Assembly (NCBI GenBank): GCA_944376785.1 | Contig: CALWDV010000001.1 | Location: 1 to 38,910 of the forward strand | From: an uncultured Clostridia bacterium | GTDB taxonomy: Bacteria; Bacillota; Clostridia; Christensenellales; UBA1242 | Reading direction: 5' to 3' | DNA: 38,910 bases | Shown: piece after piece, positions 2,982-33,669 of the stretch | Position numbering within the stretch: position 1 is the first letter of the stretch | Layout: each line of letters starts with the position of its first letter | The notes under the pieces: model-generated | Told to the model about the DNA's origin: nothing | The model's input: only the letters and a program-made list of their open reading frames with translations | The model's database searches: none | Position numbers and translations under genes: made by a program

Positions 2982-3053
2982 AGTGTTACCATCCTTGTTT
3001 AAAAAGTAATATATTTAAATTTATAACTCTATTTCCTTTTTCATTACGACTAA

Positions 3054-3082
3054 ATTATAACAATAAAACTAAAATTTGTCAA
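3054..3082 (-). promoter_or_regulatory. Perfect-consensus sigma-70/sigA promoter driving the 82-aa gene
   Basis: On the minus strand: TTGACA (3082..3077), exactly 17 nt, TATAAT (3059..3054). It lies just downstream of the rpoC terminator. The predicted TSS is near 3047, about 65 nt from the ATG. Confidence 0.65.
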
Positions 3083-3115
3083 TACCCTTTTTTTAAAAAA
3101 GTTATTGTATTTTAA

Positions 3116-3148
3116 TTAAAAAAAATTCCCTATATTTAGGGAATTTTT
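3116..3148 (-). terminator. Rho-independent terminator of rpoBC
   Basis: A 9-bp stem AAATTCCCT / AGGGAATTT (3123..3131 with 3138..3146) with a 6-nt loop is followed on the minus strand by a U-run. It begins 2 nt after the rpoC TAA. Confidence 0.75.
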
Positions 3149-3149
3149 A

Positions 3150-10460: not shown

Positions 10461-10762
10461 AATTACTCCTTAATTTTTTTGCACTACAATACACTTAAAT
10501 TTTTAATTAAATTATTTTTGGGGTTAAATTTTAATAATTTAATTAACTAATTAAAAATATGTAATTTGAATTTATCGACAATTTTTTAGAACATACAAAA
10601 AAACTATGCTAGCTTAAAAAAACAAAAAAATTCTGCCTTTATTTCTAGCATATTTAACGAAAAAAAATATTAAATTAGCCTTTACTTGTGTTAAGTAAAA
10701 TCATCAATAAACCCCAAGCGTTTGAATTTTGCGCATGTTTCAAACACTACTATGCGAATATA

Positions 10763-10791
10763 AGTTTAGCATGTATTAAAAAAAGTGTCAA
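10763..10791 (-). promoter_or_regulatory. Predicted rpoBC promoter with an upstream phased A/T-tract region
   Basis: On the minus strand: TTGACA (10791..10786), 17 nt, TAAACT (10768..10763), preceded by TGC (extended -10). The region 10792..10850 is almost pure A/T, with A-tracts roughly every 10-11 bp (UP-element-like). This implies a leader of about 295 nt. Confidence 0.45.
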
Positions 10792-10951
10792 CTATGTTTT
10801 TTATAAAATTAAAAATAAATTTTAACAATTTTAAAAAAATTAAATAAATTTTTTATATATAATAACTAAATATATTATATATAAAATATATACCATATAA
10901 TAATATGACCTTAATTTACAAAGATTTTTATTTATTTGATTGTTTTAAAGC

Positions 10952-10990
10952 ATAAAAAAGACCCAAAAGTTTCCTTTTAGGTCTTTTTTT
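10952..10990 (-). terminator. Rho-independent terminator of the giant gene
   Basis: Minus-strand RNA: AAAAGACCUAAAAG-GAAA-CUUUUGGGUCUUUU, a 14-bp stem with one G-U pair, then a U-run. It starts 3 nt after the TAG stop at 10993..10995. Confidence 0.8.
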
Positions 10991-10992
10991 CA

Positions 10993-13900
10993 CTATGCTG
11001 TGAAAGTTGTTATGATTTTTGTATCCTCAGTGAATGTATAAGTTGTTAAATCAATTTCTTCACCAATAACATCACCATTGTAAAGTTTCCAAACCAATCT
11101 AAGTCCATTATGATTTAAATCACTAGTGTTTGGAATTAGTTCACTTGATATCACTGTGTTAATGTCGATAACAACTGGAATTTCTTTGTGAATATTTCCA
11201 TAATTTTGACTGTCATCTAAAACAAATGTAATAGTTATTTGTTTAATAAATTGAGCATAAATTTTTGTTTCACCTTGAACTATTGTGTTTTCAAAATCAA
11301 ACCTGGTTGAATAATTACTTGAAGTGTACCAACCATTAAACCTATAACCCTCTAAAATTGGATTGGTTTCTGGAACTGTTACTTTTGAATCATAATTAAC
11401 TTGAAGTGTATTAATTATTTGTTCACCTTCACCAACATCATAAACAAAACTTACATTTTGTGGAATTGGAACCCAATAAGCATAAACTTCATAACTATCA
11501 GTTATTGGTAGATTTATATCAAAATCTTCTGTTAAAGATTGTCCGCCATCTGTTGAAATTTTCCAACCTTCAAATGTATAACCTGTTCTAGATGGATCTA
11601 AGATGGTTTCAGCTTTTAAACTATCACCATGAAGTATTGTTTGAGTGTAAATTGGATCTTCTCCCGCAAGAGCATAGAAATTAACAGTATATTCATTTCT
11701 TTCCCATATTGCAATAATTTCAATATCACTTGTAATTGGAGTGGCAAAATCAAATGTTTCACCATTATATTGCCATTCAATAAATGTGTAACCTTCAATT
11801 TCTGGATCTTGTGGAGTTTTTCCTTCATCTTCAACTGAGTTACCATTTTCAATTAACAATTCAACGTTTTCTAAGTTTCCATTAGGATCGTTGTAGTTAA
11901 TTATTACATGTCTTGTAATGCCTTTCCACTTAGCATAAAGTGTAATGTTAGTTGTTACAGGGTTTGAGAAGTTATATGGACTACCTGTGCCTTCTGCATT
12001 CAAATACCAATCAACTAATTCATAACCATCACGAGATGGATCACTTGGTCTTTGAACAGGAGTGTTAATTGCAACTTCAACAACTTTTGCATTAGGTGCA
12101 CCTTCATAGTTATAGTTGAATGTAACTGTTCTAATAGCAACAAACAACGCATAAATATTTGTTTCTCTTTCAAAAGTGGTTGAGCTGGTTACTTTTGTGT
12201 TTTCAAATCCTGTTCCGTCAATATTATTTGGATCTGTTACAAGTTTAGCATCTTCCCAATCATCAATATATTGTTCTAATGTTTTTTGAGCATTTGTTTC
12301 ACCATCAATTGCACCATTTACTGTTTCATTCCAAATGGTTGTTGACATTAAATACCATGCACGGAATTTATATCCTGTTTTTGTTGGAGATAATTTTGGA
12401 TCACTGAAATCAATAGGTTTATTATGTTTAACTGTTATTGTTCCTAACGATTTATAATCATTACCTGAAATTTCATTATCATATAAACCAATAACATAAG
12501 ACGAATCTTCCCATTTTGCAATTAAATTCAAGTTACTTTCAACAATATGGTTTTCAATATATTGCTCTCCATTTTGATCAAACCATCCAACAAATACTGC
12601 ACCTTCCTTAGAATAAGTTGGAAGTTTTAAAGGGTCACCTTGATAATATGTTTCAGTTTTTATGCCTTGTCCATTTTGTGGATCAAATGTAACGGTATAT
12701 TGTGGTGTGTCACCATTCGCTTCAATGTATGAAGATGAAACAGTATCAAAGCTTACACTTGTTTTTGCCCAACTAGCTTGAGCTCCCCAACCATAGAACC
12801 AACCATAATAAGCACTATTTTCGCTTGAACCAACTTGACTATAATTAGTAAATCTAAATCCACCCGAGTCACTATTAATATGAGCTTCTGCTTTATATGC
12901 AGTCAATTTTACTGTGAAATGGCCCCATCCAGCGAAGTTAGGGTTTTCGGTTTTGACATTAACATAATAATCATAAACCGACAAAGTAGTTAACTCAGGA
13001 ACATTGTTGTGTAATAAAGTTGATGAGTTTTGTGTTCCACTTACTCGTGAATAATTATATTTTTTGTTACTTGAAAGATTTGTGTCTTTATAAACATTAC
13101 CACTTTTATAAACAACTTTTCCATCAACAATATGATAATCTCCTTTAAATGTAACACCACTTCCATTTAATCCATCAGTGTTATAATTTTTATAATAATA
13201 ATTTACACCACTTCTTGTTCTTGCATATAAGCCAACATATCCACGAATAGTATTACTTTCAATTCTTGAATTATTAATTGCAGTACCAGTAATTGCACCA
13301 GTACCAGAAGTGTCAAAATTTCTAGAAGCAACATAACCATTGTTGTAAGAATTTTTTATGGTTGTTTTATTTGCATATCCAACAATACCACCAGAATATC
13401 CATTTGTGGACATAACTTCACCCAATGTATTGTTAGTTACTTTATTTATTGTTGTAGATGAAGCATTTCCAATAATTCCACCACTTCGTTTTCCAGTGTT
13501 TATTAAGCCATTATTTGTTGCGGCAAATGCATTAGTATTAGTTGTATCTTCAACTATAACACTTGTAGCATTACCAATTATTCCACCAACATAAGACCCC
13601 TCTAAAACACCATTATTAACCACATTTTTAATAATTTTAGTTTGATTTGCATTACCAATTATTCCACCAACATAAGAATTACCCTTAACAGAGCCAACAC
13701 GTTCATCTAAAACGTTATTAGATTTATAGTGTATTTCTCCATTAAAATCACTGTTATATGAGTAGTTATAATCATTACCTGTAATACCACCAACATAAGT
13801 TTTACTTGTAGATTGATTGGTGAAACTTATGTCACTTATATTATTGCAACCATTAATATAATTATTTCCATTGGTTGAATATGTGTTTCCAACAATTCCA

Positions 13901-16900
13901 CCAACATAAACACTGCTAGCATAAATATTTCCATTAATATCACCCGTATTATTACTTGAAATAATATTAGTATCTTTAATATCAGCAACTAAACCACCAA
14001 CACCATCTTGTGTGATGTTTGCCTTTATATTAATGCTATTAGAAGAATTTGAAACAACAGAATTCGTTAATGTGTTTGCTATTGTACCAAATTTCTTGCT
14101 TACAGTAATTGTGTTATTTGAACTTATATTAACATTGCTTATATTAACAAAGTTACCAATATTAATAAGTAGTCCAGTTTCTTTATTTATTGTTGAAACA
14201 TTATAATTTAATTTTATTCTTTGCAAATTAACATTTTTAGAACTTTCACCAAATATAGAGCCAAACAATGAATAATCAACTGCATCAGCAGAAACAGAGT
14301 TAATTGTTAATGTATGATTGCCACCGTTAACATCATTTCTCCAAGGATAAGCTCCCATACCCATTGGACTTATATCACTAAGCGTTATATTAGAAATAAT
14401 ATTAATTCCACCAGTAACACTACTTACTCCAAAACGTTTCCTATTTAAATCGGTTAAATATTTAAAATGATCTGCATTTGAAACTTCATAGTTACTTCCA
14501 CTTAATGTTGGAGCACTTCCTTGTGGTAATGTGTTATATGCTAATTTTATTGTTTCAGCATTCGCATCTTCAACATTTTGCCATACTAAACTATCTGCAA
14601 AAACACTATCAAATTTAACATATTCTGAACCATCATATGTTATTTTAGTGTTTGTGTTTAAAACTGTGTTAATTGAAGCTAAGTTCATAACACCTTGGTT
14701 GAAATAATGATTTAAAGTGTTATTATTTCCAAACAAGAATGATGATGAAGCATTGCTTGAAACATCAATAGCAGAATATGTTTGAGTTAATAATTTGTTT
14801 AAATCACTACCATATCCAACAAATTTGCCAAATGTACTACTATCAATATTTTCTAAAACACCGTTAGAATATTTTTGAATTTTTCCTTTATTTAACAAGT
14901 TAACTAAATAGGTTGAGTTTGTTGTTGAATTTAAATTTATGTTACCTGCAATGCCACCAACATTGCCTGTTCCACCAATATTTCCTGTGTTAATCGCTTC
15001 GTAAATTTTACCACCCTGGTCAACATAACCTGCAATTCCACCAACAGAATTACCTAAGCCAACAACTTCTCCAATATTTGTTACTGCCTCAATTGAGCCA
15101 GAGCTTAATTTACCAACAATTCCACCAACATTTTCTTTTCCTTTAATATTGCCAGAATTATCAGGTTTTGAAGTTGTGTTCACACGTACTATATCATCAC
15201 CAGTATAATCAGTTGTCCAGTTTTCAATGCCATTAATTGAAACATTAACATATTCGGTTACTGTTTCGCTTATTTCATTTCCTAATGTGGCACCAACAAT
15301 TCCACCAACGTTATCACTTGTTGAAGTGATGTTGCCTGTGTTAATTGATTTTGTAATGTTTAATGAAACGTTTGAACCATAAACCAAACCAATAATGCCA
15401 CCTGCATTATTTCTAGAAACAGAAATGTTGCCATTATTAGTTAAATTATCAAAATCTCTTGACATTGTTAAATAAGCTGTTCCAACAATTCCACCAACAC
15501 CAGTTTGATCATCATCGTTAGTAAGCAAGGTACTTGCTATGTTTGCATTGTTTACTATGTTTTCAATTTCTGTGTTTTCTGCAAAACCAACAACGCCACC
15601 AACAGAACCTCTTCCAACAATTTTTGAATTGTCTAAATCATCTCCAATTGTTCCTACACCTGTTGAGCTTATAATTTTTGCATTTGAAGTATAACCAAAC
15701 AATCCAATATTTTTAGAATCTACGCAACTAACGCCAATAACTGAATTACTATCTTTGATATATGTTCCAGAAGTAATGATGTTAGTTATTTTATGTCCGT
15801 TGAAATCAAATGTTCCTCTAAATGAATTTGAACTGTTATATCCAATTGGCGACCAGATATAATCTTTCAAATTAATGTCTGCTGTTAAAACTATTGTTTC
15901 ATATTGGAATGTTTTTACACCAGTGTTAACTTGTTCTGCAATCCAAGCTAATTGCTCAGGTTTGTTAATAGAATAAGTTGAACCAGAAATCACCATTCCA
16001 TCATCATTAGATCTTGATACCCAATATGAAACTTTTGCATTTAGCACTGGATAATTATTGTTTTGACCAAACATTCTTGTCCATGCAGCACCCCAGGTGA
16101 AGTTTGGAATAGCTTCATTTATTAGGAAGTTTTCATCTATTTTATTATTAGAATTCATTGATGTTGTATCAAGGAAATTAATTGCATACATAGATTTTCT
16201 TGCAGTTTCATTGTTGTTAAAATCGGTACCATTTAAATTTAATGGACTATTGCCAAAGAATCTATGTAGTGTTTCAACAGAATCAGTGTTTTGACAAGCA
16301 TTTAAATCGGCACTGGTTGAATGTTGATCAATTCTTTTAAACTCGCCCGACTTCGTTAAACGGAAATCACCAATGTTTCCTGCAAAATACATTTCAGAAA
16401 TTAATCCATTTGTTTCAGAACTTGTTAACTGATTGCTTGCGTTAACACTTGCATTATTACCAAAATTGATAATTGCACTTGCAATGTTATCATCTCCGTT
16501 TGAAGCAATAACATATGAATTTACATAAGCATATTGCATTGTTGGTAATTTAAATTCAACTTTATCGTTTGCATTTAATCCAGAAGCATTTAAAATGTCA
16601 CCAACAATTCCACTTGCTCTGTTTGTTGCAAAAACATTTGCATTTTCTGTTCCAACTTTCATAATTAAGTTTGCACTTGTGGTTAATACCACACGTCCAG
16701 CTAATGCACCAGACAAAGCAAACCCACCATTTTTTGAAACACTTATAAAGTTACTATCTTTAATTAAAACATTGTTTGCAAAAGTGTTTTGATTTGTTGC
16801 ATAAACAGTTCCAAATAATCCAGCATTTTTATTTTCTTCAATAACTGTTACACCACTTATGCTAAATCCTGCACCTTCAATGTTTCCTTTAAACATTGCG

Positions 16901-25900: not shown

Positions 25901-28900
25901 ATTTTGTTTCCATTACTATCTGTTTTTGTGGTTGTTTCACTGTTTGGATAATGTTTTAATTTAATATCAACAATGTCTTGTGGAATTAATGTTACTGGCA
26001 ATGTTGCCATCATATTTAAATCAGCAATACTTGTTACTGAATTTGTAACAAACCCAAAATCATCATAATTAATTTCAGGTGCATTTTCTTTAACAGTAAA
26101 GAACTTAAATGTTCTTGTAAATTCTTCGTTCACATTTAATTTGTTTTCATCTTTAACAATTAAACCAAAATTGTATGTTATGTAGTTTTTATTATTGATT
26201 TCTTGTGGTATTGGATTGTTAACTAATAATGTTAAGTTGCCAATTTGGATTTCAGATTTGTATAAATTAATTATATTGCTTACACTAATTATTTTTTCTG
26301 TTCCAAATTCGTTTGAATAAACAACAAACAATTCTTCACTATCTTTATCAGTTTCAATTTCAATGTTAAATGTTGGAGTTCCATTAACTGGGAATGTAAC
26401 ACTATTTGTGCTTTGTGTTATTTTCCAACTTGATTTTGTTACTTTAACATCAAATTTTGAAATTAATTTACTAATTAAATTAATATAATCACTTTCTGTT
26501 ACAACATCAACATTAGCACTTAAATCTGGAATTTCAAAACCACCAATAATTTTAATGTTGCTTGTTACAACGTCTTGTCCACCACTTTGTTGAGTAATTG
26601 AATATGATTTGTTTAGTTCAATTTCAGAATCTTTTCCACCTTGATTTAATAACAAAACTTTTTCGTTATTAGATACAATGTATGGCACTGCAAATAAGGA
26701 AGCAGTGGATTCTTCTAAACCAACAAAATCGGCTGAGTTACCATATGGAACATCAATATAATAAACATATTCGCCATCTTTAAACTCTTCTGTGAAAGTT
26801 TGATTATTAATTGTAATGTTGAATGGATTATTATTGTCGGCAGTAGCTTCAATTCTTTGTGTGTGATAAATTGAATGATATGGTTTATAATCTTTTGTTT
26901 TTGTTGATAAGTAATAATATCTAACACCACTATTAGCATTTTGTTCTAATTCAAATTCTTTATTTATTGTTGAACCACTAACAAAATTATATGTAGCATC
27001 TAACATTGAATTAATTGGAAGAGTGATTGGGTTTTCATTAGAACTTTTACTAATGTTTATTACTGATCCATATTCAATTGATTTTTTGTTGCCTTGTGAG
27101 AAATAGGTTAAATCTAAACGTTGAGTTGCATTAACAACATTAACTTTAATAGATTTTTGTAGTGTTGTGTTATATGCTGAACTAATTGTTATAGTAGCAC
27201 TACCTGTGCCCTTTGCAACAAATTTGATGTTATTATTTTCATCAAATTCAACAGAAACCACGTTACTATTAGAACTTGAAATTTTAAAACTATTTGCACC
27301 AATAAATGTTGGTTCAGTGGTTAAATTTAATAGTTCACTTATTGAATATGTGTTTAAAGCTTTAATTTCGTTAGATAATGTGCTTGTTAAATTTGCAACT
27401 CTTTCATCTGATAAATTTGCATTATTGTTACCAAAATTAATTTGAGTTCCGTTAGGCACATAATTTGTGTCACTTAAAGAATAGAAATAAATTACACTAG
27501 AAGCATTTTCACCAATTCCAGAAATAAATGTGTCAACATAGTTTTGTTTGTTTTCAACAAATAAATTGGTTGGTGGGAAGTTTGCAAGTAAACTTACTTT
27601 ATATGATTTATCACCAGTTAATTCTAATTTGTTTTCACTTAGTAACACAGGTAAACCATTATTTACTTGATAGTTAAAATACCAATATGTGTTTAATTCA
27701 GCATTTTTAAATTCTTCCATTGATGTGGTGTAATCATTACCAGTGTCGGAATCTAGTAAACCATCAGAGTTTGAATCTAGTTTAATTCCGTAATCATCAA
27801 CTTCTTTTTCAACGCCATAAGCTTTGGTTTGCAATTTTAATGTGTTTAAATCACTTGTTGTGGCATCGTTTGTAACAATAACAGAAATTTCTTCTATTGT
27901 TTTTTCTGTCATCAAACCATCAAAATTGCTACGCATTAATGTTTCCTGATTAACTTTTAAGATGTCTGTGTTAACTGTTAAATAATTAACACCATCAAAT
28001 TCTTTAATTTTAAACACGCCATCATTGTCATAGTATTTATAGGTTATGTTAATGTCTTTTCTTCCTTCGCCAACAAATCCAACAGATTTGTTATTATCGG
28101 TAACAGAATTTTCACCAACAATATAAGAACCATTTAAATCAACAGCTTGATAATAGCTGTGAGAAATGTTGTTAAATGTTGACAAAATGTTATTATAAAC
28201 AAAATCTGAATTACTATAATTTGTGGTGTAAGTTTTAATTTGTGATGCTAAATATTTATATAGTGCATTATTTGAACTATTTTCATATTCACCATAATAA
28301 GCAAATGTTGTTGAAGCATTTAATGCATCACCAACTAAACCACCAGTTGCACTTGTTGCATTGTTTGAATTTGCTGTTACACGATTATATAAAACACCAA
28401 CATAACTGCTATTTGAAATTTGTGTTATGCCATCTGCTTTACCAACTAATCCACCAATACCTGACAAGTGACCTTGAATGCTTGCAAAAACTTGGTTTGC
28501 ATTTAAAACACCATTGGTTAACTTACCAACTAAACCACCAGCAAAATTTCTGTTGTTATTAGAAATTTCTTCTATGTGTGAATTAGCAAGCAAGATATTA
28601 CCATAATATCCACGACCAGTTTCAAGAGTAATGAAAGGGTCAACTATTGATTTTTCTGCATCATTATTATAATTATAAACTGTGTTAAATTGAATTGGAT
28701 TATAGTTTTCAACATTTATTACAGATGTTACAGGGGTTCCTGTGTAGTTAAATGTGTAGAATTGTGTTGTGTCACTAGTTGACATCAAACCAATATATTC
28801 ACCAATTAAACCACCAACATTGTTAAATCCTAAAATTGCAGTGTTATATAATTTAACTTTATCATTTAAATATAAGAACTCAACGCTATTATTGTTAACA

Positions 28901-31900
28901 ACGTTACTTCCATATGAACTTAAACCTTTTGCAATTTGTGTTGAACTATATTTGTTATAGTAATGTTTTGAAACATTTTCATTTTCCATATTAACATTTC
29001 TAAACACGTTATATTCAACATCACTGCTTCCAGTTAATAAATTGTTTTTAGAAATTTTTTGAATGTAGTATGTATCAGGTAAAACATTATCACCTGTTTC
29101 ATCGTAAACGCTTCTAATAAAATCTTTTGCATTATCATCAGCATCGTTTCCAGTGAAATATTGTGTTGCAACTAAGTTCACAAATTCATCATAAGTTAAA
29201 GTTATGCTTTCAAAACTTTCAACCAAAATTTGGAAATCAGAGTTAAAAGCAATTGAGTTTTCCATTGTGAAACCTTGTTCATCAACAGCAGCTTTACCAT
29301 TAACAAAACTATATACATTTGAAGAAACAGTGTTTGTTAAAGTTACAATTGCACTTTCGGTTTTTCCAACAATTCCACCAATGTTGTTATGTCCACGAAG
29401 AAGTGGGAAAGATTTTGTGTTTTGAATTGTTCCAACATTATGTCCAACAACACCACCAATGTTTGACATATAGTTGTCACTTCTGTCATAAACACCAAAA
29501 ATACTTGCTTTTACTTCTAAATTTTCAACAATTCCGTTATTAAATCCAACTGCACCACCAAATGAAGAATTTTGGTTGAAAATTTGTTTGTCGCTTGGCA
29601 AGTGTGCGTTAATTGAAACAAACACATCTGCACTATCGCTACCAAAACTTAATTCGCTAGAATCAGTTTTTGTAATTACTGCACGATTGTTAAATCCTGC
29701 AATACCACCAACATAAGCAATATTGTGAAGTTGTGCATGAACATTAATTTGAGCTGAAACATTAGCATTAACTACTTGTTCATATCTGCTTTCTTCTGGG
29801 TCGTTTGGATTATTTGTTTTTAAATTTAATTCATCAAACGTGTTATTTGAAGTGTTTTTGTTACCTTTTGCACTAATTTCTTCAACATTTTGAACTGTTG
29901 AATCTGTGTTTAAGTTTGCATTATTTAAAAATCCAATTAGTCCACCAACAAAATAATAAGATTGTTCACTAGAATCTGTTTGTGATGTTATATAAATTCC
30001 ACTATCTGGTATTTCAGCAGTGTTTATTGATTGATAATATGTTCCGTTAAATGATTGAACACCACTTAAATCGTTAACTGTAACATTAATAATTTGACCT
30101 TCTGCATAACCAGCAAGAGCACCTGCAAAGAAGTTTCCAGTAACATCATTTAATTCTGTTTTTATTAAGAAATTGTTTATTATTAAATCAGAAATAACAG
30201 AATTAGCACCTAAATAAGCAAATAAACCTTGATATTTCAAGTCACTATCAACAATTTTCATTCCACTTATTGTGTAATAAGATGTTGCTAAAACTTGCCC
30301 ATTAAATTTAATTTCTTGTTTTCCTGACAATGTTCCGTTAAATTGTAAAATATTATTATTAATATAACCAATAGGTGTCCAATTAGATAATGTAATATTG
30401 TTAATTAAAACATAATTTGCATTTAATGCAGAGTTAATTCTTTGCAAATCACTTGCATCTGAAACTTCAAAAGGACTTTGTATTGAACCATCTAGCACTC
30501 TAATTTTAATTTCTTTATATGAACCAATGCTTCCATCAGCACCCACACTATCTAATGCATAAATGGTTAAAATAACATCTTCATTTCCAACAATTTTTGT
30601 TAAGATTTGAACTGTTATTTTTTTGGTTACGTTGTTAATTGAAACCCTAACTGCACTATTATTAATTTTATAACCTAAATCTTTGTAAAGTGCAGTTGTT
30701 GGATAAACAGAGAATGAAATTTCGCGTGTGCAGTTTTCTGTGTTTGTATATATGCTACCATCATAACCTAAATCACGTTCATCATAAACAATTTCGTAAT
30801 ATTGTGTTCCGTTTAAATTATGAGTTTGAACATTTTCAAAAACAAAATTTTCAACTTTTTCTGCTTTATAAACAATAAATCTAACACTTTCAGTTTTTGG
30901 AGATTTTATTGTTGTTCCGTATTCATTTTTATATTCTTGTTGAACTCTTGCAATTATGGTAAATGTTAAACTATTAACACTACCACCAGAAATTTCACAA
31001 CTAACTGTTGCACGTTTAAAGTTTGTTTTAGAAGTTGTTAAAGTAACAATGTTAAATCCTGCATAGAATGTGTATGTTACTTCATCACCATTAACTGATG
31101 GTGAAACAGTAATTTCTGTTCCATTATACTCACAAATCCATTCAATATCTCCATAAGCTAGTGATGCATTGCTTGGTGAAGATGTTAAAATTATTTCATG
31201 AGTTCCATAAGTTGCAATTTGATTTGCACTTAAAGTGTTTTTATCATATAACACAACTTCTTTTGTTGTTGTTGAAAGTTTATCAAGTGGAACAGTTACT
31301 TCAACAATAAAATCAAAGTAAATGGTTTTTTCTTGGTTTCCCAATTCGTCAAAGCCAGTTATTTGAATTGTTACTTGGGAACTACCACCCATATTTTGTG
31401 TTTGAATTTTATAATTTGGTTTAATTTGAACAACACTAGTTGTTGTTGAATTTGCATTATAAATTAAACCAGTACCATTTAAAGATGTGTAATTTTTATT
31501 GTTAATTGTAAAGTTAATTGAAATATTTAAACCATTAGAAACTTTTAATGTTGATAAATTGCCACCCTTGTTATCTGTTGCATTAACTTTTAGTCCAGCA
31601 ACAGTTATATATGAATTTTCAGTTTGCAAACTTTCAAATAAAATTATTTTAAAAGTTACTTGACTTCCATTTTCAGCAATAACATTAATGTAACATTCAC
31701 CAATAACACCTTTTGGACTTAATGCAATTTGTGCTTGTGTTTGTGTTACTGTTACCAAAGCCCCTGCATCACTAACATCATTTTTAACAAGTTCAACTTT
31801 TAATAAATTATAGTTGTATGAAGTAGGTAATCCATTAATTTCAAGTCGGGTTAAAACATCAGGTTTGGTTATGTCAATGTTAACTTCATTTTTTGTTGTA

Positions 31901-33369
31901 CTTAAAACAATTTCTTCTGTTTCAATAACAATTGATACGTTTGTGAAAACTTCGTTATATGTATCACTAATAACACTTAAAATAATTTCTTCTGCTGGTT
32001 TTGTTTCAAATGAATGAGTTAAATAATAAACATTTCCAGCTGAAATTGGTGTGTTAAAAGGAATTGGATTTTTATAAGCATCAAACAATGCAATTTTATC
32101 GTCGCCAGTGTTTAATGATAAAATAACTTCTTGATTATTCATAACACCGGTTTCGTTGCTAACAACAATTTTAATTGGTGTTCCAAACAAATTTGTGCCA
32201 TCATAATTTGCAAAAAGTTTAATTTGATTTAACGCAGTGTTATCACTACCATTGGTAACCTCAACTTTTGTTGGGAAAGCTTCAACATTTATGTTTAAAA
32301 CAATTTTTTGAATGAATGGTTCATAATCTGGAAATTCGGCATGTTTAATAACAAATTCAATTTTGCTTTTTCCATTACCTATTGCATTAATTGTGAAAGT
32401 GTTTTGACTATTTGGAGTTTTATCAATTGAAACAACTCGGTTAATTTCACCATTGTTATCAATAATTGAGCCATCTTCTTTTAACCCCGTTACATCCACA
32501 ACATAGTTGTATGTTAAATTTGGGTCATTATCAAAATTAAAATAAATTGTTTTTGAAAATAAATTTCCTGTGTTTGTGGCAAGAGTTAAATTATATTCGC
32601 CACTACTATTTTTTTTTAAGGTAATGTCATCTTTAAAATTGTCAGGTGTGTTGTTATTGTTTTTAGGAACAATTTTATCAACTGGCACCAAACTAACAAC
32701 TTTAACATCAACATTTTCTGAAACAATTTCGTTGTTATATGTTGACCTTGCTCTCATTTTAAATTCTGTAATATTCAAATCGTTTGGAACGGTTAAGAAA
32801 TTACCTTCGGTTACAATTCTAATTAATTGAGCATCTGATGGGTTAGGATTAGATAATTCAAGTTTGATTCCATTTTGAGCAGTGCCTTCTGGGTTAAAGG
32901 TTAAAAATTTTGAAATATCAGTTCTTTCACCTTTAACAACTGGAATTACACTTGAATTAAATTTGATTGATGAAATTGGTTTTACCACTCTAACAGTTAT
33001 TTGTTCTGTTAAATTACCTTCCAAAGTTTTAACTGTTATGGTTACTGGACCACCCTGTTGTTTTGCTTCAAAAACACCAATGCTTTTTCCATCTTTAACT
33101 GTTGGATTTCCATTAACAACAGAAATAAAATCGTTAATAGGAACACTAAAAGTTACTGCACCATCATACCCTTTTGGCAAATTGGAAACTTGTGCAGTAA
33201 TAGAAAACAAATTGTTCTCTGGTCTTTCGTCAAGAACAATTTCAATGTTGTTTTGATTAACTTCTAATTTCATGTTTTTATACTTATCATCGTTACAACC
33301 ATAAAACATAATTAAGGCTGTGAACAAAATTAAAGTAAAAGCAAAAAATTTCTTTCTTATGTAACCCAT
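10993..33369 (-). CDS. Giant (7,458 aa) modular surface lipoprotein: Ig-like arrays, GLUG-type beta-helix modules and Listeria-Bacteroides repeats; putative adhesin or surface fibre
   Basis: A single 22,377-nt ORF in DNA whose other frames are broken every few dozen codons. ATG 33369 has a GAGGA RBS 7 nt upstream. The N-terminus MGYIRKKFFAFTLILFTALIMFYG-C25 reads as an SPase II lipobox. It has its own promoter-like site and a strong terminator. Repeat grammar is described in the sub-features. Confidence 0.9.
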   Translation of the reverse strand: MGYIRKKFFAFTLILFTALIMFYGCNDDKYKNMKLEVNQNNIEIVLDERPENNLFSITAQVSNLPKGYDGAVTFSVPINDFISVVNGNPTVKDGKSIGVFEAKQQGGPVTITVKTLEGNLTEQITVRVVKPISSIKFNSSVIPVVKGERTDISKFLTFNPEGTAQNGIKLELSNPNPSDAQLIRIVTEGNFLTVPNDLNITEFKMRARSTYNNEIVSENVDVKVVSLVPVDKIVPKNNNNTPDNFKDDITLKKNSSGEYNLTLATNTGNLFSKTIYFNFDNDPNLTYNYVVDVTGLKEDGSIIDNNGEINRVVSIDKTPNSQNTFTINAIGNGKSKIEFVIKHAEFPDYEPFIQKIVLNINVEAFPTKVEVTNGSDNTALNQIKLFANYDGTNLFGTPIKIVVSNETGVMNNQEVILSLNTGDDKIALFDAYKNPIPFNTPISAGNVYYLTHSFETKPAEEIILSVISDTYNEVFTNVSIVIETEEIVLSTTKNEVNIDITKPDVLTRLEINGLPTSYNYNLLKVELVKNDVSDAGALVTVTQTQAQIALSPKGVIGECYINVIAENGSQVTFKIILFESLQTENSYITVAGLKVNATDNKGGNLSTLKVSNGLNISINFTINNKNYTSLNGTGLIYNANSTTTSVVQIKPNYKIQTQNMGGSSQVTIQITGFDELGNQEKTIYFDFIVEVTVPLDKLSTTTKEVVLYDKNTLSANQIATYGTHEIILTSSPSNASLAYGDIEWICEYNGTEITVSPSVNGDEVTYTFYAGFNIVTLTTSKTNFKRATVSCEISGGSVNSLTFTIIARVQQEYKNEYGTTIKSPKTESVRFIVYKAEKVENFVFENVQTHNLNGTQYYEIVYDERDLGYDGSIYTNTENCTREISFSVYPTTALYKDLGYKINNSAVRVSINNVTKKITVQILTKIVGNEDVILTIYALDSVGADGSIGSYKEIKIRVLDGSIQSPFEVSDASDLQRINSALNANYVLINNITLSNWTPIGYINNNILQFNGTLSGKQEIKFNGQVLATSYYTISGMKIVDSDLKYQGLFAYLGANSVISDLIINNFLIKTELNDVTGNFFAGALAGYAEGQIINVTVNDLSGVQSFNGTYYQSINTAEIPDSGIYITSQTDSSEQSYYFVGGLIGFLNNANLNTDSTVQNVEEISAKGNKNTSNNTFDELNLKTNNPNDPEESRYEQVVNANVSAQINVHAQLHNIAYVGGIAGFNNRAVITKTDSSELSFGSDSADVFVSINAHLPSDKQIFNQNSSFGGAVGFNNGIVENLEVKASIFGVYDRSDNYMSNIGGVVGHNVGTIQNTKSFPLLRGHNNIGGIVGKTESAIVTLTNTVSSNVYSFVNGKAAVDEQGFTMENSIAFNSDFQILVESFESITLTYDEFVNLVATQYFTGNDADDNAKDFIRSVYDETGDNVLPDTYYIQKISKNNLLTGSSDVEYNVFRNVNMENENVSKHYYNKYSSTQIAKGLSSYGSNVVNNNSVEFLYLNDKVKLYNTAILGFNNVGGLIGEYIGLMSTSDTTQFYTFNYTGTPVTSVINVENYNPIQFNTVYNYNNDAEKSIVDPFITLETGRGYYGNILLANSHIEEISNNNRNFAGGLVGKLTNGVLNANQVFASIQGHLSGIGGLVGKADGITQISNSSYVGVLYNRVTANSNNATSATGGLVGDALNASTTFAYYGEYENSSNNALYKYLASQIKTYTTNYSNSDFVYNNILSTFNNISHSYYQAVDLNGSYIVGENSVTDNNKSVGFVGEGRKDINITYKYYDNDGVFKIKEFDGVNYLTVNTDILKVNQETLMRSNFDGLMTEKTIEEISVIVTNDATTSDLNTLKLQTKAYGVEKEVDDYGIKLDSNSDGLLDSDTGNDYTTSMEEFKNAELNTYWYFNYQVNNGLPVLLSENKLELTGDKSYKVSLLANFPPTNLFVENKQNYVDTFISGIGENASSVIYFYSLSDTNYVPNGTQINFGNNNANLSDERVANLTSTLSNEIKALNTYSISELLNLTTEPTFIGANSFKISSSNSNVVSVEFDENNNIKFVAKGTGSATITISSAYNTTLQKSIKVNVVNATQRLDLTYFSQGNKKSIEYGSVINISKSSNENPITLPINSMLDATYNFVSGSTINKEFELEQNANSGVRYYYLSTKTKDYKPYHSIYHTQRIEATADNNNPFNITINNQTFTEEFKDGEYVYYIDVPYGNSADFVGLEESTASLFAVPYIVSNNEKVLLLNQGGKDSEIELNKSYSITQQSGGQDVVTSNIKIIGGFEIPDLSANVDVVTESDYINLISKLISKFDVKVTKSSWKITQSTNSVTFPVNGTPTFNIEIETDKDSEELFVVYSNEFGTEKIISVSNIINLYKSEIQIGNLTLLVNNPIPQEINNKNYITYNFGLIVKDENKLNVNEEFTRTFKFFTVKENAPEINYDDFGFVTNSVTSIADLNMMATLPVTLIPQDIVDIKLKHYPNSETTTKTDSNGNKITEVNLSEIAYDNLIPGNVGILKVYISPYFAYFDDLEIVSTGSGNDIVLFEQMLANIEETESGVLYTGKYETLIVSNNQITSGIKLVKNSYKTQDGVTGYDGNIYIRTLVNSFVTEANSFTLTLRAYKNGEVVKTASITLDVQTPPSLQLSINGDKEAPIARGTEQSFTATLNGVEGSIDFSESYIYRINTNGMEVRLGGIGSDFNIKQSNGSYSITTNVNLPTSRYIKIVGTVTKQINGETITHTDSLTLKVTDFVINEISVDKVENGSFVGMFNQPYSLIVRISKATYNPSISTLVKEKITQLEKEFSSYYEGEIEVWRSVNKTYDQSDERRYGTLSLGYNSSKTFIIGSKSEEEFNNALVYSVQNTKFDSGDTLAALVNYIYTDNGIVALVGENKEKYENVTAYKYEKTFEFGFGFYRVRDEEKPDPIENVTDFMKMEDGVDYILVNDLVLTDWVPFRDDLKINSLDGNGYVITIESFALDAYVDGQELIPNKNIGLFDKINSGTTIKNLIIEIVPKNWANSIETASESNTNADLVVDARAYENINFGILAGENEGIITNVQVVEDAGELKLERELTFASAYPNDPLYSGYYKVVNGVWEFDKNKFIIDNFSRFYPNKDYVKDDQQQPVLDLNGDLQIIAKENTTRRDLSVVRIETTTTVDVQTHYMAGLVGVNLDRGTDVLGYITNSSVENITINGVGYVAGFVANNSGKISTSYFKGANVINRVAENYAEAATGGFVVFNSGTNAAIQYSYVQGRLGEGINFSNPNNGTSNYPYADKTGLNADAKKDFAGYNYINNGVNLEGYKTSVATLRAMNSIISSKTRASGFVYENDSIVSNSYSNIMVNSSMQTSGFVYNNKEHGTISSCYSLSSVKVNSMASSPFVGRSSNYEYNNANPEGIEDCHYLKIGSDENAVTAEITYAEEFLDENEPATSLGASQFGEYNTFQGYAFNTDFELSSEESITRSVWFIPNAESQILYKSHFKDTYYVSSRPELVAANLKTTSIRVWTGTDESEENSYNYISDTIGESVHNPLLIKSAENFNNYLNYDATVDAKDRNFAIRFISDIAFNKTDLTAQTYNMDYYGDLDGNGMTINELRLVSDTDFENPETGKTITHLGLFGRIITQPLDKENSQRGVVRNLNINVSEVRGSKVTYVGALAGSIENANVFNVNITGDEVIQGKNIVGGLAGIISGDSEIVNITSNVSAKSAYFKNSNIFSANYSNQLPSVYGTFDIYNKEVIGDLTNNAETVSYVGGIAGIFDVDERDEDENINPLSLFNSKARKLTIQGSVSLIGEIVGGIFGLNGDESTASDLTFIVEERATPELIGSRITGGLVGENRGEIDRSYIEHSSTLQKQIDESYKTAVSTSATNPTVNNSNLNYNGLFKGNAHYIGGVIGFNNGGVVKNSYSKINVINLDSMYAGGFVGLSVGGQYNFCYTTGSVSGFKASGGFVGLQTVNPFMETSNVTEFKNDIFGSYIYIEPTKSNMSNIESRTTNFVGVVAANVWRSEDLETDRILTYNANNNLSIGAMIGVVVTGETGNALTLSNTLSSSGLLNERRKGETNFFVQPKITVSNLLVPTKEQLNMNETDYNEFKKLYEVMPEIGAFNSNFLYTTNQRYIVDDVRFTNTTNSTGDTFESTTTLMYKPTGLSGYVEEAKKNNQGQYIKEDGSTTTNPDEAAKVYYQYSRLQNIGSSRTLKEIITTLDVISTEAVSMGDKFVNNQTVASSSDIYRSPVFDTWNVNRWTGVRKETAADQNTVFPYLEAKPEKTRIEVRTYEDLKLMSTYTNAEFILMNDIDLAENKDEQQRVIPWEAVGTRAIPFKGSLHSNGDNQYTIYNLTINNALSTYVGLVGYASEAEFKNFNLSNVNIDIDETEQGALFIGSLVGYATMSTKIENVNIVTGYINATNSNITNGATITTSGAGTVGGLVGFSALGTIKDCGTYDLQFKNGVVSKDLSDRNDKVLININKIGDISKLENDVNKTLAFGGLVGMMTSLTVEEPMITNSVVDASLTFNNSTSIIPTDDKLGSDLNRSFDIGGLIGRSNDETSSQARITNVNINAKINADLNFGTQTKIAEINIGNAIGKSVATLLTEDISVDNKYSRNYIYGRSEANTVNVNGFDGMVNYGGAIGYVVGSTLNQETTSVVYTSYEISQTLIGNNQELKANINVKNTNKINHNVANTNANNVNVGGAVGYANNANVVNVNANTNLNVVLSGTESVLKAGGLIGKISNGQLISNLISLGTLTIDDCKNNVSNNNNVSNNNIVNAGGAFGEVVMAQTLNGFGQIKKVISQTNVIVKPTSTLTFNEPLYVGGFAGVVYSGSIDQSVSTGNVSVKKNAMNGTASVGGFIGKIDISSQILNGTISNKVEITNNIATTDLELTSMFEDDVDSQKAGLFVGSISYNNNNSSLTLRSNYTIGKYIYNSEMNSNNVYYDALYNERVNKGGFLGGFDIVASNVTLSNIETVSNLTFNNNYYNKEFVPFSNDYMNGLTVNEMLYNCGDSNGIFTDKTTLGFNSDQVWYGVNNKYPILTWIQTSTNAIGTDGTVDTLNLENSVAGNSVSYVVGSGTKLSPSTNYALDEDNASYIITDTNVTSSFSGVNQTIYYQNQNAITNTSFEINNLDRYSLVYGLFITANKTSAIVNNNYGMIVNSSIKNGLVNNNYGVVYEVTFNGLNGFNGTNNLKYVANNNNGAIDSVVANLAFSGLSSSNKAYIANANNGAIYRTVIKNTNNLFEFAKTNSGKIKTSYIITTENVTEGSTSGTLTKGTYYDGLGTSSVYELNNTVNTDVKFNTSEVQSDLTNINGFNFVDDWILISSSNSNLNYGAPMLRYELKETNGAKGGFNFNSEIISGDNGYYWAKALNQNEFNTLVNNYKNKSIIEINSNEDFANVASANSYGYQENLVVDYASFNNAKFNENIMTSVSNDDGTLSITKTEFKFGIVKTTTLKIINFEGKTIKLNKNIDLSGKLWTPIGNGFDNLKTAINEGFEIGNKINAMFKGNIEGAGFSISGVTVIEENKNAGLFGTVYATNQNTFANNVLIKDSNFISVSKNGGFALSGALAGRVVLTTSANLIMKVGTENANVFATNRASGIVGDILNASGLNANDKVEFKLPTMQYAYVNSYVIASNGDDNIASAIINFGNNASVNASNQLTSSETNGLISEMYFAGNIGDFRLTKSGEFKRIDQHSTSADLNACQNTDSVETLHRFFGNSPLNLNGTDFNNNETARKSMYAINFLDTTSMNSNNKIDENFLINEAIPNFTWGAAWTRMFGQNNNYPVLNAKVSYWVSRSNDDGMVISGSTYSINKPEQLAWIAEQVNTGVKTFQYETIVLTADINLKDYIWSPIGYNSSNSFRGTFDFNGHKITNIITSGTYIKDSNSVIGVSCVDSKNIGLFGYTSNAKIISSTGVGTIGDDLDNSKIVGRGSVGGVVGFAENTEIENIVNNANIASTLLTNDDDQTGVGGIVGTAYLTMSRDFDNLTNNGNISVSRNNAGGIIGLVYGSNVSLNITKSINTGNITSTSDNVGGIVGATLGNEISETVTEYVNVSINGIENWTTDYTGDDIVRVNTTSKPDNSGNIKGKENVGGIVGKLSSGSIEAVTNIGEVVGLGNSVGGIAGYVDQGGKIYEAINTGNIGGTGNVGGIAGNINLNSTTNSTYLVNLLNKGKIQKYSNGVLENIDSSTFGKFVGYGSDLNKLLTQTYSAIDVSSNASSSFLFGNNNTLNHYFNQGVMNLASINTVLNTNTKITYDGSEYVKFDSVFADSLVWQNVEDANAETIKLAYNTLPQGSAPTLSGSNYEVSNADHFKYLTDLNRKRFGVSSVTGGINIISNITLSDISPMGMGAYPWRNDVNGGNHTLTINSVSADAVDYSLFGSIFGESSKNVNLQRIKLNYNVSTINKETGLLINIGNFVNISNVNISSNNTITVSKKFGTIANTLTNSVVSNSSNSINIKANITQDGVGGLVADIKDTNIISSNNTGDINGNIYASSVYVGGIVGNTYSTNGNNYINGCNNISDISFTNQSTSKTYVGGITGNDYNYSYNSDFNGEIHYKSNNVLDERVGSVKGNSYVGGIIGNANQTKIIKNVVNNGVLEGSYVGGIIGNATSVIVEDTTNTNAFAATNNGLINTGKRSGGIIGNASSTTINKVTNNTLGEVMSTNGYSGGIVGYANKTTIKNSYNNGYVASRNFDTSGTGAITGTAINNSRIESNTIRGYVGLYARTRSGVNYYYKNYNTDGLNGSGVTFKGDYHIVDGKVVYKSGNVYKDTNLSSNKKYNYSRVSGTQNSSTLLHNNVPELTTLSVYDYYVNVKTENPNFAGWGHFTVKLTAYKAEAHINSDSGGFRFTNYSQVGSSENSAYYGWFYGWGAQASWAKTSVSFDTVSSSYIEANGDTPQYTVTFDPQNGQGIKTETYYQGDPLKLPTYSKEGAVFVGWFDQNGEQYIENHIVESNLNLIAKWEDSSYVIGLYDNEISGNDYKSLGTITVKHNKPIDFSDPKLSPTKTGYKFRAWYLMSTTIWNETVNGAIDGETNAQKTLEQYIDDWEDAKLVTDPNNIDGTGFENTKVTSSTTFERETNIYALFVAIRTVTFNYNYEGAPNAKVVEVAINTPVQRPSDPSRDGYELVDWYLNAEGTGSPYNFSNPVTTNITLYAKWKGITRHVIINYNDPNGNLENVELLIENGNSVEDEGKTPQDPEIEGYTFIEWQYNGETFDFATPITSDIEIIAIWERNEYTVNFYALAGEDPIYTQTILHGDSLKAETILDPSRTGYTFEGWKISTDGGQSLTEDFDINLPITDSYEVYAYWVPIPQNVSFVYDVGEGEQIINTLQVNYDSKVTVPETNPILEGYRFNGWYTSSNYSTRFDFENTIVQGETKIYAQFIKQITITFVLDDSQNYGNIHKEIPVVIDINTVISSELIPNTSDLNHNGLRLVWKLYNGDVIGEEIDLTTYTFTEDTKIITTFTA
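10996..12702 (-). repeat. Seven tandem Listeria-Bacteroides (Flg_new / TIGR02543-type) repeats, aa 6890-7458
   Basis: The units are roughly aa 6891-6953, 6958-7076 (with an insertion), 7080-7148, 7154-7222, 7227-7299, 7304-7374 and 7378-7456. The best copy is RTVTFNYNYEGAPNAKVVEVAINTPVQRPSDPSRDGYELVDWYLNAEGTGSPYNFSNPVTTNITLYAKW, matching the YTVTF-..G-....P.DP.R.GY.F.GW-....F.....T.D..LYA.W consensus. Gln6890 was verified at nt 12700..12702. Confidence 0.8.
12703..13250 (-). other. Tyr/Trp/Asn-rich domain of unknown family (aa about 6707-6889)
   Basis: The stretch reads GYVGLYARTRSGVNYYYKNYNTDGLNGSG...SAYYGWFYGWGAQASWAKTSVSF. A related aromatic-rich segment ends the neighbouring giant protein. 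Confidence 0.4.
13251..24624 (-). other. Six consecutive GLUG-type modules (modules 2-7, aa 2916 to about 6706)
   Basis: Head motifs ('x-x-I-x-x-x-E-D/Q-L...Y-x-L-x-x-D/N-I-x-L...W-x-P-I/F...F-x-G-x-L/F-x-G-N-G-x-x-I') begin at aa 2916 (nt 24624), 3523 (22803), 4264 (20580), 5372 (17256), 5796 (15984) and 6290 (14502). Each head is followed by GG[IVL][IVA]G rungs, and most modules end in a W...(N)YP(I/V)L cap. Confidence 0.6.
19093..19128 (-). repeat. Perfect 18-nt tandem duplication, in frame: (NVSNNN) x2
   Basis: Plus-strand gttattgtttgaaacatt occurs at 19093..19110 and again at 19111..19128. It is codon-aligned (aa 4748-4759 of the giant protein). Confidence 0.9.
24625..27639 (-). other. 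Ig-like / beta-sandwich array II (aa 1911-2915), including a clear Big_2-like domain around aa 2030-2080
   Basis: FKISSSNSNVVSVEFDENNNIKFVAKGTGSATITISSAYNTTLQKSIKVNVV matches the Big_2 pattern (Gly2054 at 27208..27210). The rest has beta-rich periodicity without GG.xG rungs. Confidence 0.5.
27640..30477 (-). other. GLUG-type beta-helix module 1 (aa 965-1910)
   Basis: The head is SPFEVSDASDLQRINSALNANYVLINNITLSNWTPIG...FNGTLSG...YQGLFAYLG. It is followed by many rungs of the type F/VGG(A/I/V)(I/V/A)G.N.G.I.N. The cap is TYWYFNYQVNNGLPVLL (Pro1907 at 27649..27651). Confidence 0.6.
30478..33294 (-). other. Ig-like beta-sandwich array I (aa 26-964; roughly nine to ten domains of about 95 aa)
   Basis: Alternating beta-strand patterns recur and end in motifs such as 'VTITVKT...ITVRVV', 'KIEFVIKH' and 'QVTIQITGFD', typical of Big_2-like domains. 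No GG.xG rungs occur in this part. Confidence 0.55.
32609..32617 (-). repeat. A9 homopolymer in coding sequence (codons 251-254 of the giant gene)
   Basis: Plus-strand T9. The minus strand reads ACC TTA AAA AAA AAT AGT (T L K K N S). It is the longest homopolymer run I found in the window. Confidence 0.9.
33295..33369 (-). other. Lipoprotein signal peptide (aa 1-25, Cys25 as lipidation site)
   Basis: Positive n-region (RKK), 13-residue hydrophobic core AFTLILFTALIMF, then YG followed by Cys; polar NDDKYKN follows. The lipobox is non-canonical at -3/-2 (F, Y) but has Gly at -1. Confidence 0.7.
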
Positions 33370-33468
33370 TTTTTCATCCTCAAATTTATTATTAGTTTTT
33401 GAAAAAAAACAAATTTTATAACGTTATATATATTTATTATATTATATAATATATTACGGCTTAACATT

Positions 33469-33497
33469 AGTATAATTTTTATTAAAATATTAGTCAA
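33469..33497 (-). promoter_or_regulatory. Predicted promoter of the giant lipoprotein gene
   Basis: On the minus strand: TTGACT (33497..33492), 17 nt, TATACT (33474..33469), located between the upstream terminator and the RBS. The leader would be about 95 nt. Chance matches are frequent in DNA this AT-rich. Confidence 0.4.
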
Positions 33498-33635: not shown

Positions 33636-33669
33636 AAACAAAAAAAGTGCGCTTAAAAACGCACTTTTT
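33636..33669 (-). terminator. Rho-independent terminator of the upstream giant gene
   Basis: Stem AGTGCG / CGCACT (33646..33651 with 33660..33665) with an 8-nt loop, flanked by an A-run and a T-run. It directly abuts the TAA stop at 33670..33672. Confidence 0.65.

Follow-up and report, generated by a model that had tools for sequence, protein, structure and literature searches.

The long stalk-plus-tip design of bacterial surface proteins is known from the giant adhesins Ebh and SiiE. Fibrillar adhesins have a sortase, transmembrane (TM) or type I secretion system (T1SS) anchor and near-identical stalk repeats, whereas the protein described here has an N-terminal lipobox and highly diverged modules. 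This giant protein of 7,458 amino acids (aa) is encoded by a single gene located upstream of rpoB in a window of 38,910 nucleotides (nt), by which we mean the whole stretch of DNA that was analysed (contig CALWDV010000001.1 of an uncultured Clostridia bacterium). Our results suggest that it is probably a lipid-anchored, fibre-like, adhesin-type protein on the surface of an uncultured, Christensenellales-labelled gut Clostridia bacterium.

The first group of described proteins with which it can be compared are the M26 IgA1 proteases of S. pneumoniae (6xja/6xjb/7jgj) and G. haemolysans (7uvk/7uvl), in which the N-domain is a GLUG beta-helix like the cassette of the giant protein. The fragment BACOVA_03286 (3n6z), a putative IgA1 protease of B. 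ovatus, is among the best structural matches of the modelled cassette; homologues of the cassette often carry Peptidase_M26_N (PF05342), and GLUG (PF07581) is present in the giant protein also. Unlike these proteases, however, the giant protein has no HExxH, M26 catalytic domain, G5 domain or LPXTG, and it contains seven or eight cassettes instead of one. As both HExxH and the catalytic domain are missing (no Peptidase_M26 match in Pfam), it is therefore not an M26-family protease, and this candidate was excluded. The second group are the multi-cassette GLUG proteins, such as the 1,297-aa "T9SS type A sorting domain-containing protein" of Barnesiella intestinihominis, the DUF6562 proteins of Alistipes and the homologues P0001-P0120. 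They share with the giant protein the gut habitat and a cassette of ~350 aa (25-36% identity), which starts with the head W.PIG...F.G.FDG.GH.I.NL and continues with GGxxG coils. On the other hand, they have two to five cassettes, are four to seven times shorter, carry type IX secretion system (T9SS), SLH or other signals and not a lipobox, and have neither the two all-beta regions of ~950 aa nor the conserved core of the giant protein; a single alignment covers at most about one third of the 1,101-aa query slice.

The third group comprises the adhesin-like proteins with Flg_new (InlB B-repeat) arrays, including those of gut methanogens, some of which also contain GLUG. Their array resembles the C-terminus of the giant protein, but in the latter the repeats make up less than 8% of the length and are absent from more distant orthologues. 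Flg_new and GLUG proteins have been treated as adhesin-like gut adaptations, with the function of GLUG noted as unknown (PMC9723798, PMC7883539). An internalin was excluded, since Pfam gives no leucine-rich repeat match and NF033188, with a cut-off of 1,050 bits, reaches 58 bits in the B-repeat part only. The right-handed beta-helix itself is a surface adhesion module in S. pneumoniae PfbA (4mr0) and in the binding region of L. reuteri SRRP (5nxk), although the matches of these structures to the cassette of the giant protein are weak (Foldseek probability 0.16-0.54).

As regards size, reported predictions reach 85,804 aa, and proteins of 10,000-30,000 aa that contain Listeria-Bacteroides repeats among others are known from gut Clostridia (West-Roberts et al., bioRxiv 10.1101/2023.11.21.568195); a preliminary description of this DNA, which placed the giant protein among the largest bacterial proteins, is unsupported or overstated in this respect. 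Like the giants of gut Clostridia and of Omnitrophota, it is very large, predicted to be extracellular, metagenome-derived and comparable to proteins interpreted as binders of host or prey surfaces, and with the gut Clostridia giants it shares Flg_new and a mammalian gut origin. It differs from them in being smaller, in its non-repetitive sequence (unlike RCC1-type giants) and in having one hydrophobic segment where they have many TM regions. It also has no SecA-like helicase domain of the kind seen in Omnitrophota giants, and the report cited (bioRxiv 10.1101/2023.11.21.568195) does not mention lipoproteins. An Omnitrophota-type giant was excluded on two grounds: the single hydrophobic segment and the absence of a divergent SecA DEAD helicase domain in Pfam.

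The features of the gene and its product are as follows, in the order of transcription, with the evidence in brackets (HMM, hidden Markov model; AF2, AlphaFold2).

33469..33497, minus strand: promoter-like TTGACT-17-TATACT (weak, chance frequency)
33377..33381, minus strand: ribosome-binding site GAGGA, 8 nt 5' of the ATG (read from the sequence)
10993..33369, minus strand: complete giant open reading frame (ORF), 7,458 codons plus stop, ATG start (ORF listing and translation)
33295..33369, minus strand: predicted signal peptide with lipobox, aa 1-25, Cys25 being the predicted lipidated residue (PROSITE-type rule and conservation)
30490..33294, minus strand: N-terminal all-beta region, aa 26-960, a putative beta-sandwich array without detectable sequence repeats (AF2, Foldseek)
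27655..30486, minus strand: predicted GLUG beta-helix module 1 with C-terminal extension, aa 962-1905 (Pfam GLUG, module HMM 962-1689)
24622..27654, minus strand: second all-beta region, aa 1906-2916, with a Big_2-like domain at aa ~2007-2090, nt 27100-27351 (library matches)
21520..24807, minus strand: most conserved core, aa 2855-3950, with divergent GLUG-like module 2 (2917-3520) and module 3 (3523-4001)
18400..20592, minus strand: GLUG module 4, aa 4260-4990, containing the NNVSNN tandem unit (module HMM 4260-4606)
17038..18399, minus strand: region with many NNxGxI-type repeats, aa 4991-5444 (visual inspection of the translation)
16030..17037, minus strand: GLUG module 5, aa 5445-5780 (module HMM 5445-5697, E = 5e-16)
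14500..15999, minus strand: GLUG module 6, aa 5791-6290, modelled as a right-handed beta-helix (AF2, Foldseek)
13168..14499, minus strand: GLUG module 7, aa 6291-6734 (module HMM 6291-6552 and 6559-6730)
12745..13167, minus strand: Tyr/Trp-rich segment, aa 6735-6875, no family, poorly conserved (composition)
10996..12744, minus strand: Flg_new (Listeria-Bacteroides / InlB B-repeat) array, aa 6876-7458, six firm repeats and one degenerate terminal repeat
10949..10994, minus strand: intrinsic terminator, hairpin and U-run, overlapping the stop codon (-21.7 kcal/mol, z = -6.5)

The preliminary description, which gave no strand, had taken the frame for a real gene and not a chance ORF, and this is borne out by the improbability of the frame as well as by the intact alleles, the purifying selection and the orthologues presented below. 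The only stop in the translation of 10993..33369 is the terminal one; the remaining two sense frames contain 509 and 1,167 stops, with longest open runs of 79 and 50 codons. With the base composition of the gene itself (38% A, 32% T) the stop probability is 0.0876 per random codon, and the log10 probability of 7,458 codons being open by chance is -297, that is ~1e-297. A ribosome-binding site and a strong terminator had also been claimed and both are present; the terminator was missed by a simple terminator scan and revealed by RNA folding. The promoter-like site proposed together with them fared differently: four such sites were found where 4.6 are expected in shuffles of AT-rich DNA, and because this frequency equals chance the site carries no weight.

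The gene is found intact in other assemblies of the same species. Searching ENA, NCBI and Logan for exact matches of the window RpoB gave contigs from at least five other samples and assemblers, whose DNA is 98.2-99.98% identical to the window and in which, where they reach far enough, the neighbouring gene is called at 7,452 or 7,455 aa. The 90%-identity protein cluster contains six full-length alleles of 7,452-7,461 aa, which are 97.8-98.6% identical to the window protein and differ from it in length by in-frame indels only. Altogether, an intact giant allele is carried by at least six other independent assemblies. In the last 3,150 codons the synonymous polymorphism (pS) of the giant gene, 0.048, is that of rpoB (0.044), and the within-species ratio of nonsynonymous to synonymous polymorphism (pN/pS) is 0.27-0.31. 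The giant gene is under purifying selection as a protein, relaxed relative to RpoB.

Variation within the species is concentrated in certain places. An 18-nt tandem unit encoding NNVSNN (19087-19135, in the region of aa 4747-4752) varies in copy number among conspecific alleles, the window having one copy more than all six other alleles, and further in-frame indels separate these alleles at aa 1861, 2179, 3117 and 3878. Amino acid substitutions within the species are three to five times denser in the last 1,000 residues. Repeats in the DNA do not exceed 57 nt in length and, with 60-85% similarity, are stretches that encode the GGxxG motif; the modules of the protein are at most 33% identical to one another. 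Repeat collapse is therefore no concern. The idea of a recently amplified repeat protein was likewise dropped, since neither self-BLAST nor HMMs of eight N-terminal segments found meaningful internal repeats.

The giant protein starts with MGYIRKKFFAFTLILFTALIMFYGC, in which R5, K6 and K7 are followed by a 17-residue hydrophobic stretch and then by M-F-Y-G-C25. This arrangement conforms to the PROSITE PS51257-type lipobox rule with Cys25 (regular expression), and in a protein with a Cys content of only 0.2% this residue is invariant in 13 of 13 homologous N-termini, where residue 24 is Gly or Ala. Lipoprotein processing at Cys25, which the preliminary description had also proposed, is accordingly a likely prediction from these N-termini. 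The N-terminal hydrophobic segment is the only one in the protein. In agreement with what had been noted before, neither LPXTG (LP.T[GAN]) nor HExxH nor a C-terminal hydrophobic window that could be a TM segment is present anywhere in the protein. Two other kinds of surface protein were excluded, a sortase substrate by the lack of the LP.T[GAN] motif and of a C-terminal hydrophobic window, and an SLH protein by the lack of PF00395 in the giant protein.

GLUG-type cassettes occur several times along the protein. Pfam GLUG is above the cut-off in aa 940-1960 (28.5 bits vs 20.5) and just below it in three further slices. With a module HMM built from 28 cassettes, six cassettes are recognised (962-1689, 3523-4001, 4260-4606, 5445-5697, 5791-6169 and 6291-6730), together with a weak seventh at 2917-3371 (weak match 3300-3371), in line with the multiple GLUG-type cassettes claimed earlier. 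The region at aa 4991-5444, which gives no match by module HMM or Pfam, is possibly another solenoid. When aa 5700-6800 were used as a query, 1,808 homologues were found, mostly gut Bacteroidales and Firmicutes proteins of 1,000-1,900 aa that contain the same ~350-aa cassette two to five times, some of them together with Peptidase_M26_N, Big_3, SLH or T9SS sorting domains. For aa 5790-6190, AF2 with a 28-sequence alignment gave a model whose predicted local distance difference test score (pLDDT) is mostly above 90 and whose predicted template modelling score (pTM) is 0.74. Its nearest Foldseek matches are 3n6z and the IgA1 protease N-domains 7uvk, 7uvl and 6xja (probability 0.93-1.0, with template modelling scores (TM-scores) of only 0.31-0.43), followed by generic right-handed beta-helices. 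The model thus presents this one cassette as a right-handed beta-helix.

The two regions that had been proposed as immunoglobulin (Ig)-like arrays are less clear. They are predicted to be all-beta and contain one Big_2-like domain, which supports part of the proposal, but no Ig match in Pfam and no internal repeats were found. Slices of the protein had been suggested for folding, and while aa 5790-6190 gave a confident beta-helix, the model of aa 1-1000, built from a two-sequence alignment, is poor (pLDDT 39.7, reaching ~70 only for aa 31-225), although all-beta. Foldseek matches this low-confidence model loosely to tandem beta-sandwich (Ig/MG) arrays, with a TM-score of ~0.1. In Pfam there is no Big_2 at E <= 5 in aa 1-960 or 1940-2960 and no other Ig-family match in either proposed array; the orthologue fragments P0129 and P0132 give no Big_2 match either, and the HMMs of the eight N-terminal segments found no internal repeats among the array domains. 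By transitive homology, however, aa ~2007-2105 match the Big_2 repeats of P0133 (E = 4e-16) and of P0140. Judged from these sequence matches, only aa ~2007-2090 of the proposed arrays can be called Big_2.

At the distal end the assignment is firmer. Flg_new (PF09479) is found with E = 6e-53 and 177 bits against a cut-off of 27, in six stretches; Flg_new_2 (PF18998) is found too, and TIGR02543 scores 77.8 against 20.95, NCBIfam otherwise adding nothing. The repeats match by self-HMM and show a weak match to the InlB B-repeat structure 2y5p, beyond which PDB sequence searches with single sequences over the whole protein gave nothing useful. The seven terminal Listeria-Bacteroides repeats of the preliminary description are thus present as six firm repeats and one degenerate one, and of the families it had expected from an HMM search, Flg_new, TIGR02543 and GLUG were found and Big_2 was not. 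The Tyr/Trp-rich domain that it placed before them is real in composition (Tyr plus Trp 11.5% vs 5.8% overall), with ~13-20% identity to orthologues.

Members of the family were found by querying 1.84 billion representatives exhaustively with aa 1960-2920 (HMMER). The 20 proteins matched include 11 colinear giants or giant fragments, namely homologues of 7,455, 7,525, 7,469, 7,804, 7,596, 7,417, 7,723, 6,590 and 6,664 aa and two fragments. When aa 940-1960 were used in a word-indexed search, no match was obtained at E <= 1e-5; this is due to its prefilter, as the exhaustive search did find orthologues. Over the full-length alignment the orthologues are 27-47% identical, and the conservation is distributed very unevenly. 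The best-conserved part is aa 2500-4000, with a peak of 80% mean identity at ~aa 3551-3600; within the core, aa 2855-3950, identity to orthologues is 50-80%, compared with 17-45% elsewhere. No Pfam, NCBIfam or PDB relative of the core was found, profile search included. The worst-conserved part is the last 700 residues, with ~20% identity, a stretch that is not alignable in the two shortest orthologues. No source gives any family member a name, and the view that this combination of parts is not a characterised family can be maintained.

The variability of the distal end extends to its domain content. Only the closest relatives, those with RpoB identity of at least 89%, have Flg_new repeats at the C-terminus, and the number of repeats varies. 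In five relatives (L001, L002, L004, L054 and L024) one to five Flg_new stretches are recognised in the C-terminal 950 aa, while in five others (L027, L005, L011, L052 and L025) the same part consists of GLUG cassettes or of sequence without Pfam match. As the C-termini differ between subclades, the distal end has therefore been exchanged during the history of the family. The Flg_new tip had been presented as the defining functional end of the protein; no other part, however, is as poorly conserved, and the more distant orthologues lack it.

The position of the gene, in contrast to its sequence, is stable. Downstream of the giant gene and on the same strand lie rpoB, rpoC, a HicB-like ORF, rpsL and rpsG, and related contigs extend the rpoB-rpsG cluster with fusA and tuf; GC content is ~30% throughout the window. 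A phage tail fibre was excluded by this chromosomal context with rpoBC and rpsLG nearby. Thirty-five related species genomes have an RpoB identity of at least 73% and extend 10 kb upstream of rpoB; in 26 of them a frame of more than 3,000 codons, open to the locus edge, fills these 10 kb, and the remaining nine have ordinary-sized genes there. Where RpoB is at most 60% identical, none of 12 genomes has a giant frame upstream of rpoB. The giant gene is a clade-wide feature at a fixed position. Its sequence, on the other hand, evolves very fast: at 95% identity of RpoB, identity over the C-terminal 3,000 residues is down to 35-44%.

Judged by RpoB (93-95% identity), the nearest species genomes are gut metagenome-assembled genomes (MAGs) titled uncultured Clostridia or Christensenella sp., and the sources of the closest RpoB relatives are goat, humans (Hadza, Brazil), mouse, chicken and ruminants. 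Nothing in them shows loss of the wall, contrary to the wall-less or sortase-poor lineage that had been suggested. Four relatives (L054, L058, L011 and L022) have single contigs of 0.71-0.84 Mb with ~30% GC, which would fit the genomes of less than 1 Mbp of UBA1242.

The upstream neighbour of the giant gene is a second gene of similar kind, and its features in the window are:

33670..38910, minus strand: second giant GLUG-type gene, C-terminal 1,746 codons, cut by the window end (open frame, module HMM)
33640-33671: terminator of the upstream giant gene

The module HMM finds several GLUG cassettes in this ORF. Its counterpart in the metagenome contig L086 (1-9384, plus strand) encodes more than 3,127 aa and is still open at the locus edge; a first metagenome scan with the upstream ORF had given no match. 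The upstream gene of L086 aligns colinearly with aa 2855-3947 of the giant protein (E = 2e-41 and 4e-21). The most conserved part of the giant protein is therefore also the part that it has in common with its neighbour.

Between the terminator of the giant gene and rpoB there is an AT-rich leader of ~530 nt (10461-10992, minus strand) with a good promoter-like site, TTGACA-17-TAAACT with TG extension, at 10791-10763. An Rfam search of the whole window found no RNA family. Two small ORFs lie between rpoC and rpsL and are both kept in conspecific contigs: a HicB-like antitoxin ORF (2256-2585, minus strand; Pfam 24.2 bits vs cut-off 27) and an unannotated ORF of 82 aa (~2733-2981, minus strand). 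They may constitute a toxin-antitoxin pair that has entered the rpoBC-rpsLG cluster.

How would a protein of this kind work? As a giant lipoprotein it would be exported through Sec, Cys25 would receive the diacylglycerol modification, and cleavage by signal peptidase II would leave the protein attached by its N-terminus to the cytoplasmic membrane, in the outer leaflet. The ~1,900 residues of beta-sandwich-type domains, together with seven or eight rigid GLUG beta-helix cassettes, could then form a long non-repetitive shaft, which would carry the distal end far from the cell (~100-200 nm, estimated from typical domain dimensions). The fast-evolving distal end, in the subclade of the window the Tyr/Trp-rich segment and the Flg_new beta-grasp repeats, would bind ligands, and the faces of the beta-helices perhaps bind as well; glycans, mucus and other cells are candidate ligands. 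We infer lipidation, surface exposure, the extended shape, adhesion and its target from the parts described above.

Several points weigh against a fibre-like adhesin with a lipid anchor. First, the strict G+LPP pattern, [LIVMFESTAG][LVIAM][IVMSTAFG][AG]C, misses the window allele, which has F at -3 and Y at -2, although four orthologues (P0125, P0126, P0127 and P0130) conform to it at the same position. Second, the Ig-like nature of ~1,900 residues would depend on a low-confidence model. Third, conservation across the family does not extend to the presumed binding tip, and Flg_new is therefore not the essential function of the family. Fourth, Pfam leaves ~90% of the protein unassigned, and neither PDB nor Pfam contains a relative of the core; the core could therefore have a role other than adhesion, be it enzymatic or structural.

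The alternative that survives best, which we nevertheless hold to be rather unlikely, is that the giant protein and its tandem paralogue are the attachment apparatus with which a genome-reduced, metabolically dependent gut Clostridia lineage, possibly UBA1242, is tethered to partner cells. By analogy, the apparatus would play, in a Gram-positive lineage and with a lipid anchor, the part that giant surface proteins have in Omnitrophota, or attachment structures in Patescibacteria, in gripping partner or prey cells. The clade-specific core, aa 2855-3950, would represent a functional module not seen before, and specificity for the partner would be determined by the distal end, which evolves fast. 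Within Christensenellales, the family UBA1242 combines genomes of less than 1 Mbp with a lack of standard transporters, and it has been proposed to be an obligate symbiont or parasite which contacts other cells by unknown membrane proteins (PMC12306168). UBA1242 fits in habitat and genome style (PMC12306168); the relatives are Christensenella- or Clostridia-labelled gut MAGs with 30% GC and largest contigs of 0.7-0.84 Mb. In a genome of this size the two adjoining giant genes (22.4 kb and more than 9 kb) would fill more than 3%. That the gene is kept across the clade while its surface parts diverge fast in an arms-race-like manner, far beyond rpoB, also agrees with such a tether. However, nine of the 35 related genomes are without a giant ORF at the rpoB position, and no domain points to microbial rather than host or dietary ligands.

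The same constancy and the same divergence can be seen in another way, namely as properties of a mainly structural, S-layer-like or capsule-like fibrous coat that gives protection against phage, immune factors or bile; we regard this as improbable. Size and order of parts are constant across the clade, the gene adjoins highly expressed housekeeping genes, and rapid divergence fits phage or immune pressure. Some homologues of the GLUG module carry SLH (PF00395), and the S-layer protein SbsC is among the Foldseek matches of the N-terminal model. This last match, however, comes from a model of low confidence with a TM-score of ~0.1, and Pfam finds neither SLH nor another wall-binding domain in the giant protein itself. 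A 7,458-aa monomer with a single N-terminal lipid anchor is, moreover, unlike the known lattice-forming S-layer proteins.

The conserved core directs attention to a surface enzyme, an explanation with little probability in our judgement. One or more of the beta-helix cassettes, and especially aa 2855-3950, would be a glycan-active lyase, hydrolase or epimerase, in analogy to tailspikes, pectate lyases and AlgE epimerases. The core is far better conserved than the rest and is common to the paralogue, as would be expected of an active site, and the Foldseek list of the GLUG module includes P22 and K2 tailspikes, polygalacturonases, pectate lyases and mannuronan epimerases. But these matches are weak (probability 0.05-0.7, TM-score 0.13-0.29) and reflect the generic beta-helix, whereas the confident ones are the non-catalytic N-domains of IgA1 proteases. 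At the sequence level no enzyme family is found in Pfam, NCBIfam or PDB, and the lack of HExxH means that it is not an M26 protease. Finally, the explanation that the gene is an artefact, either a chimeric or collapsed assembly or a decaying pseudogene still open by luck, has no positive evidence and its sole formal ground is the origin of all sequences from short-read metagenome assembly; it is effectively refuted by the ~1e-297 chance of the open frame, the recovery of an intact gene from six or more independent assemblies (ENA, Logan, NCBI), the pN/pS of ~0.3 with all indels in frame, the absence of long DNA repeats and the colinear orthologues in many species.

Returning to the lipid-anchored, fibre-like adhesin, it should be said what is new about it and what is not. 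GLUG beta-helices, Ig-like spacers and Flg_new repeats are already known as the usual building blocks of gut adhesin-like proteins, and no new principle is introduced. New are, first, the unnamed family itself, with few outside relatives for aa 1960-2920 and with predicted lipobox anchoring at such size; second, the non-repetitive run of seven or eight predicted beta-helix cassettes, the relative-free conserved core and the tandem paralogue; and third, the fixed place adjoining rpoB across at least 26 species.

If this reading is true, a clade of uncultured animal and human gut Clostridia spends a 22-kb gene and a giant paralogue on one surface fibre. The surface-fibre genes would then probably take up several per cent of a small genome, in a position fixed by rpoB and with a fast-changing sequence. 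The protein would be an example of lipobox anchoring for more than 7,000 residues in a Gram-positive lineage, and it would bring to light a conserved core of ~1,100 residues and ~1,900 beta-rich residues without assigned family or structure. For organisms that are known from metagenomes alone, it could serve as a marker gene, an antigen or a bait for enrichment.

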